Source: Gemmatimonadota bacterium
GTDB lineage: Bacteria > Gemmatimonadota > Gemmatimonadetes > Palauibacterales > Palauibacteraceae
Length of the DNA: 64,000 nucleotides
Direction: 5' to 3'
Assembly (NCBI GenBank): GCA_963666735.1
Contig: OY762926.1
Span: 928,001 to 992,000, forward strand
Below are positions 45,240-62,341 of the stretch, piece after piece; position 1 is the first letter of the stretch, and each line of letters opens with the position of its first letter. Under the pieces are notes generated by a model. It saw only the letters and a program-made list of their open reading frames with translations. It ran no database searches and had not been told where the DNA came from. The translations under genes were made by a program, and so were the position numbers.

Positions 45240-46082
45240 TTAGGACCCCGCGGCCTTCTTCTTCTCCGGCTCGCCCTCCGCCTGATCCTCGGCCCCGGCT
45301 TCCGCCTCATCGGCACCGGAGACGCTCGCCCGGAGCGCGGCCATGAGGTCGATGACCTGCGCCGTCGTTTCCTCCTCGGCGGGCGCGGCGATCTCGGTGC
45401 CGTCGGCGACCTTCCGCTCGATCGCCTCGAGCATGCGCTGCCCGACTTCATCCTCGTACCTGGACGGATCGAAGCTCTCCGAGGCGATCTGCTCGATCAA
45501 CTGGACGGCGAGCCCGAGTTCCGCATCGGCAACCTCGCCCTCTCCCGACGGCACGTCGGCGATATCCCGCACCTCGTGCGCGTAGTGCAGTTGTTCCAGC
45601 ACGAGGTGATCCCCGACCGGCCGCACGAGGACGAGGTACTGCTTGCCGCGCGCCGCGTACTTCGCGAGCGCGGCCCAGCCCGTCTTCGTCATCGCCGCCC
45701 CGAGCAGGCGGTAGGCCTTGTCTCCCCCGCGCGCGGGCCCGAGATAGTACGTCTTTCCGATATACGCCCGCTCGACCTGGTCCAGCGGCACGAATTCGAC
45801 GATCTCGATCGCCCGCGTCGCCGCCGCCTCCAGCGCCTTCAGTTCCTCCGGCTTGAACGTCACGAACTGGTCCTTCGCGAACTGATAGCCCCTCACGAGA
45901 TCGCCGCGGGGGATCGGCTCCCCGGTCTTCGCGTCCACGTACTGCTGCTTCACGCGGGCCCCGTCGGGGGAGAGGAAGTTGAAGCGGACTTTCTGCGAGT
46001 TCTCGGCGGACGAATAGAGCTGGCACGGGATCGAAACGAGCCCGAACGAGATCGTCGCCGTTGCGATGGGTCGAGGTGACAT
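45240..46082 (-). CDS. ku: NHEJ DNA end-binding protein Ku
   Basis: ISFGLVSIP, VRGY, IEIVEFVP, YYLGP, AYRLL, VIDLMAALRASV. Confidence 0.94.
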   Translation of the reverse strand: MSPRPIATATISFGLVSIPCQLYSSAENSQKVRFNFLSPDGARVKQQYVDAKTGEPIPRGDLVRGYQFAKDQFVTFKPEELKALEAAATRAIEIVEFVPLDQVERAYIGKTYYLGPARGGDKAYRLLGAAMTKTGWAALAKYAARGKQYLVLVRPVGDHLVLEQLHYAHEVRDIADVPSGEGEVADAELGLAVQLIEQIASESFDPSRYEDEVGQRMLEAIERKVADGTEIAAPAEEETTAQVIDLMAALRASVSGADEAEAGAEDQAEGEPEKKKAAGS

Positions 46083-46247
46083 CCTGTGCCTCTCCGTGTG
46101 CGCGCCGAACCGCCGGCGCGATGCCGGCCCCGATGCCGGCCCCGCGGCATGATGCCGGACCGGGGGGCGGAATAATAGGTTGCGGCCGGGATTGTCGCAC
46201 AGAGCGGGAGCGACGCGAGCGGGCAGCGACAGGGGGCGCCTGCAGGC

Positions 46248-48830
46248 ATGCCACGAGAAAAACTCGAGGAATACCGGGACAAGCGCGCGTCCGAGCGCAC
46301 GCCGGAGCCCTTCGGCGGGGCGCCCGGGACGGGGGCCGGCGTGTTCGTGGTCCAACTGCACGCGGCGACCCGGCGGCACTACGACCTTCGACTGGAGATC
46401 GGGGGCGTCCTCGTCTCATGGGCGGTGCCAAAGGGCATCTCCGCCGATCCCGCCGACAAGAAGCTCGCGGTCCACGTCGAGGATCATCCGGTCGAATACA
46501 TCGAGTTCGAGGGCGTGATTCCGGCCGGCGAGTACGGCGGAGGCGAGATGATCGTGTGGGACATCGGCCGCTGCATCATGCTCGAAGACCCGGAGGAGGG
46601 ACTGGAGACGGGCAAGCTCCTGTTCGAGCTTCGGGGCCACAAACTCAAGGGCGTGTGGACGCTCGTGCGGCTGGAGAAGGGGGAGACGGGAAAGGAATGG
46701 CTGCTCATCCGCGAGCGGCGCGGCGGGCACCCGATTCTCGAGGACGGGTCGCTCCCGGAGAGTTCCATCCTGTCCGGGCTCACGGTCGAGCAGATGGCGG
46801 AACGGGAGCGCGGCTGGTACCCGGGAGAAGACCTGGCCGCGGCCCTCGCGGAGGCGGGGGCGCCGGAGCGGCCGGTCGATCCTTCCGACATCCGGTTCAT
46901 GCTCGCCACTCCTCGCGAGGACGCCTTCGACGACCCCGCGTGGCACTTCGAACTCAAGCTGGACGGCTACCGCATGCTGGCCGCGGCGGTCGAGGGCGAG
47001 GCCAGCCTCCTGACGCGCAACGGACACGACGCGCTCCCCACCTTCCCCGACATCGCGCGCTCCCTGCGCAAGCTCCCCTACCGGCGGGTCGTGCTGGACG
47101 GCGAGGTCGTCGTCCACGACGCGGCGGGATACCCCAGCTTCCGGCGCCTGCAGAAGCGCGCCCGGCTCTCGCGTCCGATCGACATCCGGCGGGCCTCCTT
47201 CGAGGCGCCGGCGAGCTTCTACGCCTTCGACCTCCTCGCGTTCGATGGCCGCGACCTGCGCGACCTTCCGCTCGCCGAGCGGCGCCGCTTCCTGCGCGAC
47301 GTGGTGCCGGAAGCGGGTCCGATCCGCTTCAGCGAGCACTTCGAGGGGTGCGGGGAGGCCCTGCTCGGGCAGGTGCAGGGGATGGGTCTGGAGGGGATCA
47401 TGGCCAAGCGCGCCGACTCCCGGTACGTCGGAGGCCGTTCCCCCGCCTGGAGGAAGATCCACGCGGCCCGCCGGAACCGCTTCGTCATCGTCGGCTTCAC
47501 GAATCCGGCCGGTTCGCGGACGGGCTTCGGGGCCCTTCACCTGGGCGCCTACGGTCCGGCCGACTCCGCGCCGGAAGCGCCCGCCGGGGACGACGACCTC
47601 GCCCTCCACTACGTCGGCCGCGTCGGGACGGGCTTCGACGACAAGACGCTTACAGTCCTCCATGCCCGGCTCGACGACCTGAAATCGGATGCGCCCGCGT
47701 TCGTGACTCCGGCGCCGGCGGGAGACGAACACACCTGGGTCGAGCCCCGGCTCGTCGCCGAGATCCGCTACAAGGAAGTCACCGAGGGCGGCCTCCTCCG
47801 GCACGCCGTTTTTGTCGAAGTCGCGGACGTGCTCCCCACGGACTGCCGGCTTCCCCGGAACCCGCGCGCGGCCCTCCCCGATCCCGTGCGCGTGGACACG
47901 TCGCCCCCGCCCGTCGAGGAACTGCCGCTCTCGAATCTCGACAAGGTCTTCTGGCCGGAGGAGGGATACACGAAGGGGGACCTGATCGCGTACTACGGGG
48001 ACATCGCGCCGTGGCTGCTGCAGTTCCTGAAGGACCGGCCCCTCGTGCTGACGCGGTACCCGGACGGGATCGACGGAAAATCCTTCTTCCAGAAGAACGC
48101 GCCCGGATTCCAGCCCGAATGGGTGCGCACGGAAGCGATCCGGAGCAAGGGGTCCGGGCGGGACATCCACTACTTCATCGCCGACGACCCCGCGACGCTC
48201 GTGTTCGTGGCGAACCTGGGCGCCATCCCGCTTCACGTGTGGGCGAGCCGCATCGGGAGCCTGGACCGCCCCGATTGGTGCCTTCTCGACCTCGACCCGA
48301 AGCACAAGCGCGGCGACGAGGAAGTGTACGCGCCGTTCGGGGATGTGGTGGAAGTCGCGCGGACGATCGGCGAGTTGTGCGAGGAGATCGGACTGCCGAG
48401 CTATCCCAAGACGAGCGGATCTTCGGGGATCCATGTGATGATCCCGCTCGGCGGACAACTCGACTACGAGCAGTCGCGCACGCTCGCGCTCCTGCTCGCG
48501 AAGACGGTGGCGGCGGAGATTCCCGAGCGGGCCACGATCGTGCGGAACCCGGCGGGACGAGACGGCAAGATCTATATCGACTACGTCCAGAACGGCCGCG
48601 GACGGCTCGTGGTGGCGCCCTATTCCGTGCGGCCGCGGGCGGGAGCCACGGTGTCCGCGCCGCTCCGCTGGGCCGAGGTGGGACAGGGGCTCTCGATGGA
48701 GGACTTCACGATCCGGACGATGCCCGGGCGGGCCCGGGATCTGGACGCCGACCCGCTCCTGGGCGTGTTGTCGGACGAGCCCGACCTCATGGCGGCACTC
48801 GACGCCCTGCAGCGGAAGTTGGGCGGGTGA
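46248..48830 (+). CDS. ligD: NHEJ DNA ligase D (phosphoesterase-ligase-polymerase)
   Basis: FVVQLHAATRRHYDLRLE/SWAVPKG (PE), ELKLDGYR and EGIMAKR (LIG), RYPDGI, DLDP, KTSG (POL). Confidence 0.95.
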   Translation: MPREKLEEYRDKRASERTPEPFGGAPGTGAGVFVVQLHAATRRHYDLRLEIGGVLVSWAVPKGISADPADKKLAVHVEDHPVEYIEFEGVIPAGEYGGGEMIVWDIGRCIMLEDPEEGLETGKLLFELRGHKLKGVWTLVRLEKGETGKEWLLIRERRGGHPILEDGSLPESSILSGLTVEQMAERERGWYPGEDLAAALAEAGAPERPVDPSDIRFMLATPREDAFDDPAWHFELKLDGYRMLAAAVEGEASLLTRNGHDALPTFPDIARSLRKLPYRRVVLDGEVVVHDAAGYPSFRRLQKRARLSRPIDIRRASFEAPASFYAFDLLAFDGRDLRDLPLAERRRFLRDVVPEAGPIRFSEHFEGCGEALLGQVQGMGLEGIMAKRADSRYVGGRSPAWRKIHAARRNRFVIVGFTNPAGSRTGFGALHLGAYGPADSAPEAPAGDDDLALHYVGRVGTGFDDKTLTVLHARLDDLKSDAPAFVTPAPAGDEHTWVEPRLVAEIRYKEVTEGGLLRHAVFVEVADVLPTDCRLPRNPRAALPDPVRVDTSPPPVEELPLSNLDKVFWPEEGYTKGDLIAYYGDIAPWLLQFLKDRPLVLTRYPDGIDGKSFFQKNAPGFQPEWVRTEAIRSKGSGRDIHYFIADDPATLVFVANLGAIPLHVWASRIGSLDRPDWCLLDLDPKHKRGDEEVYAPFGDVVEVARTIGELCEEIGLPSYPKTSGSSGIHVMIPLGGQLDYEQSRTLALLLAKTVAAEIPERATIVRNPAGRDGKIYIDYVQNGRGRLVVAPYSVRPRAGATVSAPLRWAEVGQGLSMEDFTIRTMPGRARDLDADPLLGVLSDEPDLMAALDALQRKLGG

Positions 48831-50738: not shown

Positions 50739-52474
50739 CCCGGATCCTGCGATCGTTGGCGCGGGGCTCGTCCGGGAGGGCGGCCGTAGCCGGGCCGCGG
50801 AAGCCTTGACGATAGTGAGAGCATAGTGTCGGACTATGGAAAAGCACCATCCGGGGCCCTACGTTCAGAGGGACTGGACAAGAGTTCACCCCGGAACGGA
50901 GGACACCCGAATGGTGCGTGGAAACGACTATACCGGATCGCGCCCGCACGTGCAAGGATCGCCGGCGGCGCCGGGGGTCCGCGGCGGCGGCGTACGGATC
51001 ACCGACGCGGGCGGCCTGGTCGTGGTCCGGAGGCTGTGGGACGCGCTGGGGCTGGGCCGTTGGATCGACGACCGGACCGGGAACGTCCCCGGCCGCTACC
51101 GGCCGTCGCTGATGGTCGAGTTGTGGGTGGCGCTGCTCCTGTACGGCGGCGGGGTGATGGACGACCTGCCGCTTCTCGAGCGGCGGGGGGTACGCCGCAT
51201 CTTCGGCTGGAGGCGGGTGCCGCACCCGGCCACGTTCGGGCGCTGGCTGCGGCGCTCGGCCGCGGTGATGTCCCCCCTGCTCGACGAGCTTCTGTGGCGG
51301 ATGGTGCGGCGGCGCTGGGAGATGGCCGGCGGGGCGCCCCGGTCGGCGACGGTCGTCATGGACTCGACCGTCGTGGTGCGCTACGGGCTGAGACAGGCCG
51401 GGGCGGAGAAGGGCTACAATCCGAAGAAGCCGGGCCGTCCCTCGCACCATCCGCTGCTGGCCTACGTCTTGGAGACGGGCGACTGCCTCGGGGTGCGCTG
51501 GCGGCCGGGCAACGCGCACACGGCCGGGGGAGCCGAGGCGTGGCTGGCCGGGCTGGTGGCCCGCCTGAGGGAGGCGGGGGTGCGGGACATCACCGTGCGG
51601 CTGGACAAGGGGTTCTTCTCCAAGCGCATCGCGGCGAGCATGGAGGAGCTCGGCGTCTCCTATCTGCTCAAGGTGCCGCGGTACGGCTGGCTCGACGGCT
51701 TCCGGGGCGCCTGGGAGACGGCCACCGCCGACGGGGCCGGGGACCGGGAGCTGAGGACCGCCTCCGGCGAGCTGTGGGGGACGCGGCTTCTCTCGGTCGA
51801 GAGGCGGAGACGGACCGGCCCCGCGGAGGGGGAGCTCGATCTCGAGGCGTGGGAGACCGCGATGAGCGCCGACGTTCTGACCAACATCCGGGGCATCGGC
51901 CCCATCGAGGCGTGGCGCGCCTACAACGCGGGCGCGGTCGTCGAGCAGCGGATCGAGGAGTTGGGCCAGCTTTCGGCCGGGCGCACCGCGGTGGACGATC
52001 TGGGCGGAAACGCCCTCCTGTGGGGCCTCGCCGCGCTCGCCTACCAGCTCCTCCACATCCTGCGCGCGAACTGCCTCGGCCGTCGGTGGCGGGTCGTACA
52101 GCCGCGCGGCATCCGGCTGCGCCTGCTGCGCGCCCCGGCCAGGATCACCTCCCACGCCCGCCGAACCTCGCTCGGGTTCGCGCGCGGCGAACCGGCCCTC
52201 GGCCTCCTGCGGCGGGCGCTCCGCACCATCGAGAACGGCCTCCCGCCGCCCGCGCCCGCCTGACCGACCCCGGACCCGGCCTTGCGAAGGCGCCGCGCGG
52301 CGGCGCCCCGTTCCCGTGTCTCCGCGCGCCGCCCGGGGTCCCTCCCGAACCCCGCCGGCCCCCACCGAGGCCCGGTCCGGCCCCGAAAACGCCATCACCC
52401 GCGCCAAATCGCCACAGCCGCAGGTCATAATCGCGCCTCCGGCCGTCCGACTATGCACCAACGCAGGATCCGGG
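50739..52474 (+). mobile_element. IS1380-family insertion sequence, 1736 bp
   Basis: Perfect 13-bp terminal IR CCCGGATCCTGCG (50739-50751 / 52462-52474), flanked by direct repeat TTCAC (50734-50738 and 52475-52479). Confidence 0.92.
50836..52263 (+). CDS. IS1380-family DDE transposase
   Basis: TDAGGL, PHPATFGR, MDST, GYNP, HPLL, RPGNAHT, RLDKGF, YN...EQRIEE. Alternative start at 50911. Confidence 0.88.
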   Translation: MEKHHPGPYVQRDWTRVHPGTEDTRMVRGNDYTGSRPHVQGSPAAPGVRGGGVRITDAGGLVVVRRLWDALGLGRWIDDRTGNVPGRYRPSLMVELWVALLLYGGGVMDDLPLLERRGVRRIFGWRRVPHPATFGRWLRRSAAVMSPLLDELLWRMVRRRWEMAGGAPRSATVVMDSTVVVRYGLRQAGAEKGYNPKKPGRPSHHPLLAYVLETGDCLGVRWRPGNAHTAGGAEAWLAGLVARLREAGVRDITVRLDKGFFSKRIAASMEELGVSYLLKVPRYGWLDGFRGAWETATADGAGDRELRTASGELWGTRLLSVERRRRTGPAEGELDLEAWETAMSADVLTNIRGIGPIEAWRAYNAGAVVEQRIEELGQLSAGRTAVDDLGGNALLWGLAALAYQLLHILRANCLGRRWRVVQPRGIRLRLLRAPARITSHARRTSLGFARGEPALGLLRRALRTIENGLPPPAPA

Positions 52475-57607: not shown

Positions 57608-58705
<1,098 letters not shown>

Positions 58706-58765
58706 CATCACAAGACAAGCGGGAACGGCTCCGGCACGCGACGGACGCCTTAAGGGGGACGCAGG

Positions 58766-59851
58766 CTATCGCCTGTGCAGAGGGTGTCCGGGCAAGTGTA
58801 CCTGTCTCCGCGTCGCCAGGTCGAGTTCCTTGATGAACAGATCCGTATCGAACAGGTAGTTCGGGTAGGCCGCACGCAAGTTTGCCACGGAGTCCATCGC
58901 GACAAGGACGACCTCGGCACCATCGATCCCGCGGATCTCTTCTTCTCGCTCTTCGTATAGTTTGGCGGCTCCGGCCAGTCGCGACTTTCTGAAACCCGAG
59001 ACTGTCATGGATCGTTCATCGGGCCTTCGCTCGAGAAGAAAATAGTGGCAGTGGGGCGGAAGACGCTCGGGAGCATAGCTGATGAATGTTCGATAATCGT
59101 CAAGCGTGCCGACCACGTTGAGATCGGTCGCGAGCCGTACCAACGAGTCGCGTAGAGTCACCGGGTCCGACGGGGTCTCCGGGACCACGGGAGAGCGCTC
59201 CTTTATGGCCAGCCACGAGCCTGCCAGCGCAAAGAACCGCAACCAGCCCGCGTTCCCTTCACTGGACTTGAGCGCTTGGTCCTTGATGGCGCCGGCCGTC
59301 TCCACCGCGGTCGCCCAGGCGTGCTGGAGCTTTGAACGGAGTTGGATCTCGACCTGGAGTCCGTTGTAGGTCTCGTTTCTGTCGCTTCGATAACGGTATA
59401 CCAGATGAATGCCACGGTAGCCGGACGATTTGGGCCACTGGATATAATCCACCTCCCGGATGAGTTTGTGTTTCATCTTCGAGCGACGGTGTGCACTCCA
59501 CAGTTCGCGAACCGCGGCGGGGCTGCTGACGATCGCACGACAACCAGCGATGTCCTGCATCCGGGACAACTTCATCCCAGGAAAACGTCGCAGCTTGGCG
59601 ATCGTGGCCGGTGCCCGCTTCAGGCGCTGAGAGACGATGGCTTGGGATTCTATGCTCCTAATCCGTCGCCGCAGGCCCATCTGTATCGTGTTGAGCGGAA
59701 AGCTGTGCGCGGCGCGCCAGTTGTTCAGGACCGCGAGTTCGTGTCGGGTGTCCGGCTCGCCGCGCCCGTTACCCACCCATCCCGTGGCGGCCAGTTTCTT
59801 CCCGGCGCGGTCGACTTCGCTTCGCGTGTAGAGCGGTTGAATCCAGTCCAT
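58766..59851 (-). CDS. RelA/SpoT synthetase-domain protein with fused CapRel-like (toxSAS + antitoxin) architecture
   Basis: QRLKR, MQDIAGCR, SGYRGIHL, EIQLRSKLQHAWATAVE; C-terminal LRAAYPNY; visibly lower GC than its flanks. Confidence 0.85.
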   Translation of the reverse strand: MDWIQPLYTRSEVDRAGKKLAATGWVGNGRGEPDTRHELAVLNNWRAAHSFPLNTIQMGLRRRIRSIESQAIVSQRLKRAPATIAKLRRFPGMKLSRMQDIAGCRAIVSSPAAVRELWSAHRRSKMKHKLIREVDYIQWPKSSGYRGIHLVYRYRSDRNETYNGLQVEIQLRSKLQHAWATAVETAGAIKDQALKSSEGNAGWLRFFALAGSWLAIKERSPVVPETPSDPVTLRDSLVRLATDLNVVGTLDDYRTFISYAPERLPPHCHYFLLERRPDERSMTVSGFRKSRLAGAAKLYEEREEEIRGIDGAEVVLVAMDSVANLRAAYPNYLFDTDLFIKELDLATRRQVHLPGHPLHRR

Positions 59852-59947
59852 GATGATGGGAGGCTATCTCCGTATGTTCGCTCTCGCCACCGGGTGACGA
59901 CGTCCCCGTCGCAGGGTTCAGTCCGTCCTCGCCGTATCGCGATGCCG

Positions 59948-60502
59948 CTACCGGTCGTGGCGCAGGATGGGGAGGTAGGCCTTCCAGGGCCCGACCTCGT
60001 CCTCGAACCGGTGCGCGACGACCCGCGCGATCTGGGCGATGTGGTTGAGGTCGTGGACGGCCCAGGTGGTGAGCAGTTGCCGCAGCGTGACCTCGCCCAG
60101 TTCCGGGTGAAGGCCGCCCGCATCGAGATCGGCCTCGCCTTCGACCACTTCCCTGAGCGCCGCGAGTCCGGTCTCGCGCAGGGTCTCGAATTCGGTCAGC
60201 AGTTCATCGAGCGTGCGGCCGCGAGTGCGCTCGACGTGCGCGAAGCGGTCGAAGGGCGGGAAGGCCCGTTCGCGGCCGTGTGCCAGAATCCACCGCGCCC
60301 GCGGAATCCAGTCGTCGATCTCGCCCTGAATGAGATGTCCCAGCACGCTGAAGGGGCTGAACGTCCCCTCCCCCTCATCCGCGTGCAGGAGACCGGGCGG
60401 CAGATCCTCGAGTAGCACGCGCACCGTCCCCGGTGTCCGCGAGAGGAGGGTGAGTATCTCCTCCGCCAACTGCTCATCGCTCACGACAATTTCTTCCGTC
60501 AC
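59948..60502 (-). CDS. DinB-family protein
   Basis: RTPG, VLGHLIQGE..DWIPR, PPFDR, HPELGEVTLRQLLTTWAVHDLNH, VGPWKAYL. Confidence 0.85.
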   Translation of the reverse strand: MTEEIVVSDEQLAEEILTLLSRTPGTVRVLLEDLPPGLLHADEGEGTFSPFSVLGHLIQGEIDDWIPRARWILAHGRERAFPPFDRFAHVERTRGRTLDELLTEFETLRETGLAALREVVEGEADLDAGGLHPELGEVTLRQLLTTWAVHDLNHIAQIARVVAHRFEDEVGPWKAYLPILRHDR

Positions 60503-60528
60503 TGTCTTCCGTCACTGTCTTCCGTCAC
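60492..60528. repeat. 13-bp tandem repeat (TCTTCCGTCACTG, about 2.8 copies) over the DinB start
   Basis: Copies at 60492-60504, 60505-60517 and a partial copy at 60518-60528. Confidence 0.9.
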
Positions 60529-60719
60529 CCGGTTTCTCCGCCAAATGTCGTCCGGACCACACGGGGCTCGGTCTGCGTTGCCGCCGCCCCGGGTGCGCGA
60601 ACCGAAACGGAACGCGACCTCCGCGGCTTTGCAACGGGGCTCCGCCTGCGCATCCTCTCCCGGTCCGTGAACCGGCCCGAAACGAGAACAACCCGCGTCC
60701 GAGCCAGGATCTTGCCGTC

Positions 60720-61622
60720 GTGAGCGAACCGCCAGTCCATACGGAAACGTCGTCCCGGAGCCGCTTCGTCCGGCGGTTGCGGGGAGACAAGCCGACGATG
60801 ACGGTCGAACTCCGGCCGCCTCGCAGCGGACTCACGCGGGGCGGGGCGATGGACATGTGGATCGACCTCTCCCATGCCATCCGGGGTCTCGCGGCGCGCG
60901 ACGCGTTCCTCATGCTCACGGACAGCGCCGTGGGCGAGGAGGAGGAGGAGAACCTCCAGCACCTCACCGCCAACCTCGCGAACGAGGTGGACCCGTGGCG
61001 GGTCGTACCCTTTCTCACCTGCCTCCACCCGCTCGACTACTGCCTGCGCTACGTCGACCGCGCGCGGGCCCGCGGCGTCGAGAGCGTGACCGTGACCGGC
61101 GGAGACAAGGTGCGAGGCGTCGAGCGCTGCCTCCCCCACGGGTATCAGCTTCGACAGAGATTCCGGGAGCGGGCGCCGCGCCTGTCACTCGGGGGCTGGG
61201 TCAACCTGCACCGCCCCATCGCCGAACAGATCGGTTTCGCCACGGACCCGGAGTATGAGGCGGACTACTACCTCACTCAAGTCGTTTCCCACCACGACCT
61301 GGCGCTGGCGGAGGGTTGGCTGACCGGCGCGGAGCGCGCGGGCCTCGAGATTTCCGGCTCATTCGGCGTCTTCTACTACCGGAACGGCCGGCGGACGGTA
61401 TTGGAACGGCTGTCCCGCTTCTTCCCCGTACCGGTTGAAGGGGTGGCTTCGGCCTTCGCAGCCGGAGCCACGCCGGAGCGGCACTGCGCGGAGACGATCG
61501 TCGCGCTTCGGCGCCTGGGGGCTGTGCACGTCTATCTGTGCAACCTCGCCCCGCACCGCGCCGCGACCCAGTTCGACCGCATCATGGCCGAGGTCGCCGC
61601 CATCGAAACCGAGCAGGGCTGA
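60720..61622 (+). CDS. Divergent MetF/MTHFR-like FAD-linked oxidoreductase fold protein
   Basis: TVELRPP, LTD, PFLTC, VTGGD, ADYYLTQ, HVYLCN follow the order of MTHFR barrel motifs. Confidence 0.55.
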   Translation: MSEPPVHTETSSRSRFVRRLRGDKPTMTVELRPPRSGLTRGGAMDMWIDLSHAIRGLAARDAFLMLTDSAVGEEEEENLQHLTANLANEVDPWRVVPFLTCLHPLDYCLRYVDRARARGVESVTVTGGDKVRGVERCLPHGYQLRQRFRERAPRLSLGGWVNLHRPIAEQIGFATDPEYEADYYLTQVVSHHDLALAEGWLTGAERAGLEISGSFGVFYYRNGRRTVLERLSRFFPVPVEGVASAFAAGATPERHCAETIVALRRLGAVHVYLCNLAPHRAATQFDRIMAEVAAIETEQG

Positions 61623-61664: not shown

Positions 61665-62063
61665 CTACTCCGAGGCGTCGATTCGGTTCAGCTTGCCGGG
61701 CCACTCCAGGATCTGCGAATCGGCGGTCAACAGCTGGTGTCCTTCGAGAGCCGTCGCCACGATCAGCCGATCGGCCGGGTCGCCGCGCAGGCCGGGAAGC
61801 AGTCCTGCCCGCACGCCGATAAGACCGTTCACCGGGAGTTCGACGAGTCCCTGGGCAAGAAGGTCGCGACGCCAAGCCTCCGGGTCGGCGAGAAGATCGA
61901 ACCGCCCCGCGTGGACGCGCATGGCAACCTCCCAGAAGGAAATGGCCGACACCGCGGCGTGCCGCCGCCGTAGCGCACGCTCAATCGTCCGCCGCGCCCG
62001 TGGCCCCAGACGACGATCTCCACTCCTGAGCCATAGCAGGACATGCGTGTCGAGCAGGATCAA
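61665..62063 (-). CDS. vapC: VapC-family PIN-domain toxin
   Basis: ILLDTHVLLW, SAISFWEV, DPADRLIVATA, LLTAD; TTG start overlaps the antitoxin stop. Confidence 0.92.
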   Translation of the reverse strand: MILLDTHVLLWLRSGDRRLGPRARRTIERALRRRHAAVSAISFWEVAMRVHAGRFDLLADPEAWRRDLLAQGLVELPVNGLIGVRAGLLPGLRGDPADRLIVATALEGHQLLTADSQILEWPGKLNRIDASE

Positions 62064-62341
62064 AAAAGGTCGTCTCCGTCGTCCCCGGCATCCCACCACT
62101 CCCTGGGCATCGGCCCCACGATATCGCCCCGGATCCGGATGATGTCGCGATCTCGTCCGAACCAGGACTCGGGCGCCTCGTCGCATGGGACGAGCTTCGA
62201 CACGGGGCGGCCGTTCTTCGTGATGACGATCTCCTCGCCGGTCTCGGCGACCTCATCCATGAGTCTGAGACATTTCGCCTTGAACTCCGATGCCTTGATG
62301 GTCCGCGGCCCACCCGCGGGCCGCTTGTGGTCTGCTTCCAT
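62060..62341 (-). CDS. Phd/YefM-family antitoxin
   Basis: IKASEFKAKCLRLMDEV, IVITKNGRPVSKLVP, acidic tail. Confidence 0.92.
   Translation of the reverse strand: MEADHKRPAGGPRTIKASEFKAKCLRLMDEVAETGEEIVITKNGRPVSKLVPCDEAPESWFGRDRDIIRIRGDIVGPMPREWWDAGDDGDDLF

Follow-up and report, generated by a model that had tools for sequence, protein, structure and literature searches.

CapRel-SJ46 of Salmonella phage SJ46 (PDB 7ZTB, 9ERV) is the closest well described relative of the gene reported here. According to PMC9712102 and PMC11578894 it is built from a single open reading frame running from a toxSYNTH domain via an anchor to a pseudo-zinc-finger domain (pseudo-ZFD) and a YxxY motif; PMC9712102 names its catalytic and autoinhibition residues, and PMC11578894 reports that it senses both the capsid protein and Gp54. 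CapRel-Ebc from Enterobacter chengduensis, another fused CapRel known here by description, is reported to sense phage Gp0.4 bound to host FtsZ (PMC13423816), an example of close homologues responding to triggers that are unrelated. The preliminary description of the present DNA had named the capsid as what such proteins sense; the capsid is indeed a known trigger, but only one of three, the others being Gp54 and the Gp0.4-FtsZ complex. Unfused CapRel/ATcapRel, PhRel/ATphRel (Phrann gp29/gp30) and FaRel2/ATfaRel2 are likewise described as tRNA-targeting toxSAS with a YxxY-type or homologous antitoxin, but these are two-gene systems, whereas the antitoxin of the query lies within the same polypeptide. 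Sister toxSAS subfamilies are reported to make nucleotide alarmones rather than to modify tRNA, and type I PANGU systems (GRel/Pag1B plus NAP) are described as comprising an adjacent nucleoid-associated protein gene and an acidic DNA-mimic C-terminal domain. Further sources on CapRel, toxSAS and RSH proteins are PMC11782079, PMC7229694, 10.1101/2024.07.05.602228, 10.64898/2026.04.06.716658 and 10.1101/2024.10.26.620412.

The gene and its relation to CapRel-SJ46

In the window (the whole 64,000-nucleotide stretch that was analysed) the fused CapRel gene occupies 58766..59851 on the minus strand, starts with ATG and encodes an intact protein of 361 aa, with YTRSEVDRAG..NNWRAAHSFPL at the N-terminus and VVLVAMDSVANLRAAYPNY at the C-terminus. 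The open reading frame is genuine and homologous to fused CapRel-SJ46 over its full length. Its sole Pfam match is RelA_SpoT (residues 75-182) and no HD, TGS or ACT domain matched at E<=0.01, in agreement with its first description as a synthetase-only RSH protein with these terminal motifs. The gene is also more AT-rich than its neighbours, as had been stated: GC is 60.6% compared to 68.5% for the genome (1.9th percentile among equal-length windows) and GC3 is 0.73 compared to 0.84-0.90 in six neighbouring genes. Its codon-model score is -0.01 per codon vs. 0.26 +/- 0.06, under a model trained on a biased set of long high-GC3 ORFs. The locus is not an assembly artefact, since contigs of several runs span the region. 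All four sequencing runs compared (two studies) bridge mtnA, CapRel and dinB; contigs of three runs (one study, possibly the source) cover 58357-61200 without any difference, and the fourth run, from the other study, also spans this interval, where it shows 26 differences and a single gap of 13 bases at 60492 that does not touch the CapRel gene.

Sequence, fold and residue conservation all identify the protein as a member of the fused CapRel family. A phmmer search against the PDB returned 9ERV and 7ZTB at E 3e-38, collinear over residues 8-341 with an identity of 31% to CapRel-SJ46, and the C-terminal 98 aa alone align with the SJ46 C-terminus at E 2e-5 (a single comparison). RelP/RelQ-type enzymes matched in the core only (about 90-110 aa, E 1e-5 to 1e-9). 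The AlphaFold2 model, predicted from a 114-sequence alignment (pLDDT 86.5), has Salmonella CapRel as its top Foldseek match (E 3.5e-24), with the next family at 6.8e-8. In VIA comparisons it matches 7ZTB with Z 27.1 (283 aligned, rmsd 3.3, residues 5-348), compared to Z 17.9 for RelQ over residues 39-220 only and the far lower Z 7.7-8.2 for FaRel2 chains. The query is also matched at full length by the PADLOC model PDC-S33 (PDLC04999; E 5.6e-113) and by phrog_4773 (E 3.5e-97), which are candidate or unknown-function labels rather than experimental assignments. CapRel from the SJ46 phage record matches PDC-S33 at 7e-87, so this shared model covers fused CapRel; a literature search for PDC-S33 by name found nothing.

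A housekeeping RelP/RelQ-type small alarmone synthetase (SAS) would have the same synthetase core fold (Z 15-18, residues about 33-221), and the query does show a weak match to the NF053588 YjbM model. At 44.9 bits, however, this match lies far from the cut-off of 320 bits, and SJ46 CapRel itself scores 39.4. RelP/RelQ enzymes measure about 200-230 aa and their match misses both the first N-terminal helix and the C-terminal domain of the query, which has about 140 additional C-terminal residues. In a 29-row tree 25 fused proteins including SJ46 stand apart from four housekeeping rows (96/98), the query being outside the housekeeping group; the four are three short SAS, only one of which passed the YjbM cut-off, and the genome's long Rel domain. 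The fused rows were picked for their resemblance to the query, neither PhRel nor unfused CapRel is among the 29 rows, and long branches meet at the split. The genome carries this long Rel separately, and 23 syntenic sites in relatives are without the CapRel gene. The housekeeping reading is effectively refuted.

The toxSYNTH toxin domain comprises residues 1-217 (59201..59851, minus strand, as are all parts of the gene; model and alignment). It begins with two predicted N-terminal helices (residues 10-23 and 33-48) and holds the catalytic set assigned by alignment, i.e. donor-site R76/K78/R79, D100, R105, the G-loop Y145 (59417-59419) and E168xQ170. Linker and anchor-1 helices follow at residues about 218-257 (59081..59200), with a boundary taken from the model, and then the pseudo-zinc-finger antitoxin/sensor domain at residues about 258-320 (58892..59080), modelled as strand-strand-helix-strand at residues 270-318. 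The YPNY (YxxY) neutralisation motif, Y329-Y332 (58856..58867), is the equivalent of SJ46 Y352-Y355. R76, D100, R105, Y145 and E168xQ170 are invariant in the 114-sequence alignment, and YxxY is found in 112 of the 114 sequences.

Counted by hand on the phmmer alignment, the catalytic residues R79, R116 and Y155 of SJ46 correspond to R76, R105 and Y145 and are identical, and V338, L339, A341, A351, Y352, Y355 and A77 correspond to V315, L316, A318, A328, Y329, Y332 and S74. Seven of the eight SJ46 autoinhibition residues (A77, R116, V338, L339, A341, A351, Y352, Y355) are therefore identical, the exception being A77, which is S74 in the query. A MAFFT alignment agrees on the mapped residues and places the pseudo-ZFD hairpin differently. 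Together with the PDB matches at E 3e-38 and the fold match to CapRel-SJ46 (Z 27.1 over residues 5-348), this residue conservation substantiates the proposal in the preliminary description of a fused CapRel-like toxSAS.

Mean identity and entropy in the 114-sequence alignment are 0.30 and 2.12 for residues 258-312, compared to 0.56 and 1.31 for residues 1-217; a short loop at residues 21-40 and the tail are likewise highly variable. A variable C-terminal stretch had been proposed at about residues 265-320. The variability is there, but the limits have to be moved to about 241-312, because V315, L316 and V317 are invariant in all 114 sequences; V315, L316 and A318 form a conserved scaffold next to the variable residues 258-312. 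The Gp54-binding anchor-1 helix of SJ46 (270-279) aligns with a shorter stretch of the query that is predicted as coil, and, by our own reading of the alignments and the model, the pseudo-ZFD has a first hairpin loop (some 4 residues in the query model) that is apparently much shorter than in SJ46. With trigger surfaces that are shorter and divergent, the same triggers as for SJ46 should not be assumed.

Proposed mode of action

We consider it probable that the gene encodes a fused CapRel toxin-antitoxin that is autoinhibited by YPNY, opened by phage and acts through tRNA pyrophosphorylation and abortive infection. The C-terminal pseudo-zinc-finger domain would keep the N-terminal synthetase off, with YPNY plugging the ATP-donor site, until a phage protein or a phage-host complex opens the molecule; opened CapRel would pyrophosphorylate the 3'-CCA ends of tRNA, and this modification would stop translation and abort the infection. 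Autoinhibition, tRNA substrate, phage trigger and abortive infection are here inferred by analogy to CapRel-SJ46 and CapRel-Ebc. Against this reading we count the 31% identity to SJ46, the three broken alleles among seven, the 0 promoter sites, the PADLOC matches near only 6 of 15 homologue loci (see below) and the alarmone synthesis reported for sister toxSAS subfamilies.

In the model, the N-terminal helices and the basic toxin domain would fit a tRNA substrate. The first 220 aa contain 39 K+R and 18 D+E, compared to 31-34 K+R and 33-38 D+E in three short SAS. FaRel, Tas1 and GRel/Pag1B are reported to make nucleotide alarmones, and at an identity of 31% to SJ46 the substrate could have changed, so that a fused toxSAS whose product is (p)ppApp or (p)ppGpp and not modified tRNA has to be considered. 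Such an activity is very improbable in our estimation: the predicted N-terminal helical extension and basic surface are as in tRNA-targeting toxSAS, donor-site blocking by YxxY is reported as typical of tRNA-targeting members, and in fold the query resembles Tas1 far less (Z 11.7).

The mtnA-dinB junction

The CapRel gene lies between mtnA (methylthioribose-1-phosphate isomerase; 57608..58705, plus strand, convergent) on the left and a DinB_2-family gene (59948..60502, minus strand, co-oriented, 96 nt upstream) on the right. Both are conserved context and not part of the system. Since both persist in relatives without CapRel, neither is a dedicated antitoxin, and DinB, present at empty sites, is ruled out as a partner; the absence of an adjacent antitoxin gene that had been reported is thereby borne out. 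A PANGU type I system is set apart by description, the neighbours here being mtnA and dinB and the C-terminus being CapRel-like with YxxY. No structural, packaging or lysis PHROG was matched at E<=1e-8 among 31 called genes between 38.7 kb in the window and about 17 kb past its end, which rules out a prophage context and confirms the location outside a prophage given in the preliminary description. PHROG matches in those 31 genes comprise housekeeping genes, three transposase-type ORFs, a DNA methyltransferase and a Bor-like protein. The chromosomal housekeeping site is a further difference to CapRel-SJ46, which resides in a prophage.

The promoter scan returned 0 sigma-70-type sites for the CapRel gene. 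The DinB_2 gene is a possible source of read-through transcription into CapRel. A box containing GATAGC at 59852-59875 precedes the start codon by about 10-15 nt and is retained by 5 of the 6 alleles compared; as a speculation, it might be the -10-like element of a nearly leaderless transcript.

Other features of the surroundings are a Phd/YefM antitoxin and PIN toxin pair (VapBC-like; 61665-62341, minus strand) 1.8 kb from CapRel, the DDE transposase (DDE_Tnp_1_4) of an insertion sequence (50836-52263, plus strand), divergent Ku and LigD genes for non-homologous end joining (45243-48830), and an ORF of about 300 aa (60717-61622, plus strand) that is conserved in the genus (56-92% identity) and has no Pfam, NCBIfam, PHROG or PADLOC match at the thresholds used.

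Of 36 genomes of the genus, 7 carry the gene at the mtnA-dinB junction, 23 have an empty junction, with 20-139 nt separating the two flank matches, and 6 are unresolved (three without both flanks, three without retrieved sequence), so the gene is not syntenic core content of the clade. The CapRel alleles of G000, G017, G010 and G051 are intact, and those of G042, G013 and G050 are broken as assembled. In G042 (L013:2436-3378) toxin-domain sequence is lost through a 5' deletion plus indels and in G013 (L015:3106-3664) through two internal deletions, the C-terminal end being kept in both, which is consistent with a decay that removes toxicity first. In G050 (L014:2239-3390) the toxin domain is in frame with its main catalytic residues, and the antitoxin domain is broken by a single-base loss plus a garbled duplication. 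An assembly error is the more likely explanation here; if real, the break would leave an unneutralised toxin. In G017 an Mrr type IV restriction endonuclease of 307 aa (L010:2090-3013) separates mtnA from CapRel, which hints at a small defence slot in this place. In G010, G051, G050 and G013 the same position is taken by a lipoprotein-like NHL/6-bladed propeller gene of about 400 aa (L011:1862-3172, L012, L014, L015:1817-3037); one of the four was scanned, with weak Pfam matches below the cut-offs.

The flank trees comprise 7 filled rows and 21 empty ones, without G047 and G005, whose flanks are incomplete. Every carrier in them belongs to a single subclade of 22 genomes (100/100), but the carriers do not form a clade (AU p 4e-40). 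The tree of the seven alleles splits as the flanks do, and synonymous divergence runs in parallel: dS to G010 is 0.74 for CapRel, 0.63 for mtnA and 0.57 for dinB, and to G017 it is 0.06, 0.18 and 0.07. Whole-gene dN/dS is 0.07-0.08 compared with G010 and G051 (dS 0.73) and 0.22 compared with the closest allele, G017; the toxSYNTH and whole-gene rows of G042 were dropped, because internal indels invalidate ungapped pairing. A gene tree that mirrors the flanks and a dN/dS of about 0.08 speak for an old acquisition that was repeatedly lost and not for a fresh arrival. The simplest reading is one old gain followed by repeated loss, i.e. a single horizontal gain into the mtnA-dinB junction before the 22-genome subclade radiated, then repeated loss or breakage, which we infer. 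A recent horizontal gain is disfavoured, since the dS of the gene follows that of its flanks and its tree agrees with theirs, although recombination may move the gene and its linked flanks together. Of the earlier claim of horizontal acquisition, the accessory and foreign-looking character (low GC, patchy occurrence) holds; the gene appears, however, to be long-resident and repeatedly lost and not newly acquired.

With three of seven alleles at the site broken, selection for function has not been constant. The broken alleles and the missing promoter consensus in the scan might also mark the query as a silent or decaying remnant without present function. We regard this as quite improbable, since its ORF is intact with all catalytic and YxxY residues, and its dN/dS is 0.07-0.08 over a dS of 0.73 in the comparison with G010 and G051, and 0.22 compared with G017.

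Compared with G010, dN/dS is 0.07 for toxSYNTH, 0.10 for residues 258-312 and 0.02 around YxxY; amino-acid differences amount to 10 of 55 positions in the sensor and 21 of 217 in the toxin. The sensor thus evolves faster than the toxin, yet under purifying selection. No positive selection in the sensor was seen among close alleles (dN/dS 0.09-0.10; few pairs and low power). Given the Red Queen pattern proposed for CapRel sensors, this counts against the phage-defence reading.

Distribution and meaning of the locus

The CapRel family is very common and is already modelled (PADLOC PDC-S33, phrog_4773), and the query is an ordinary member of the known fused family that reveals no new mechanism. 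At least 3,944 homologues were found among 8,000 scored candidates, and at least 568 relatives are encoded among 601 pattern matches listed in GTDB genomes. The best 80 GTDB relatives span Acidobacteriota, Pseudomonadota, Gemmatimonadota, Chloroflexota, Actinomycetota, Bacteroidota and archaea. Homologues occur at 71 viral loci (contigs) and on 105 plasmid records, 88 of them covering >=80% of the query, and three phage records contain near-full-length homologues. In a sample of the phylum, 20 of 301 genomes match at E<=1e-20. Apparent fusions to extra domains in relatives from the phylum were rejected; the long open frames read as high-GC upstream run-on before the normal start, though fused forms may occur elsewhere.

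Among the matches listed, the nearest named relatives (97% and 89%) belong to Ca. Palauibacter, so the host is likely a Ca. Palauibacter (Gemmatimonadota), judged by sequence. PMC10469786 describes the order from sponges, marine sediments and saline soils. Among the papers listed on sponges, symbionts and anti-phage defence, and among those on Palauibacter, no title or abstract opening addresses the gene; the RSH tables of PMC7229694 may already list such homologues.

Across 15 homologue neighbourhoods, hand-picked from 80, no conserved partner gene was evident. In six of the 15 loci, the called genes to the left and right (at most three per side) include a PADLOC match, a count that includes some generic domains and has no background control. 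In the tree of best relatives the query falls in a 15-row, mostly Gemmatimonadota clade (support 99). A Longimicrobiales-type CapRel lineage (L085, L089, L096, L109, L126) lies directly after a lipB-like housekeeping gene in 5 of 5 loci scanned, another sedentary non-prophage site. A second CapRel in G003 (L029:7245-8255, G003:C14) is 97% identical to one from another family. We rejected it as a between-family transfer, since its contig is probably mis-binned: most of its 10 kb, with the flanking genes, is 85-97% identical to loci of the other family and only about 66-74% to its own genome.

A fused, autoinhibited CapRel toxin might also serve a role unrelated to phages, against another mobile element, in host stress or as a costly selfish toxin-antitoxin. 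This would agree with the gene's long stay at a housekeeping site, its conserved sensor (dN/dS 0.10), the frequent loss and decay of alleles, and the position of the nearest Longimicrobiales lineage, which likewise lies behind a housekeeping gene. On the other hand, the fused CapRels SJ46, Ebc, Kp and EcHT all restricted phages according to PMC9712102, and Mrr occupies the same site in G017. Post-segregational killing through antitoxin decay would also seem excluded for a fused protein, since SJ46 CapRel is reported not to be proteolytically processed (PMC9712102). We therefore hold a non-phage role to be improbable. Unlikely, too, is a more specific scenario, in which the query would belong to a mostly Gemmatimonadota, sedentary chromosomal CapRel lineage that provides effector-triggered immunity with a new trigger class and was domesticated behind housekeeping genes in several lineages. 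Purifying selection would then act on the sensor for its task of guarding a conserved host protein, or a complex of host and phage, instead of following a capsid that changes fast.

Phage defence by a fused CapRel, the reading we favour, would extend a well-studied defence family to an uncultured genus of Gemmatimonadota. Equivalent homologues number in the thousands; the remodelled sensor makes the query a reasonable entry for screens that seek new CapRel triggers. One locus offers a natural series of intact, broken and empty alleles, one of them with Mrr alongside, and this series shows the turnover of a single-gene defence outside prophages.
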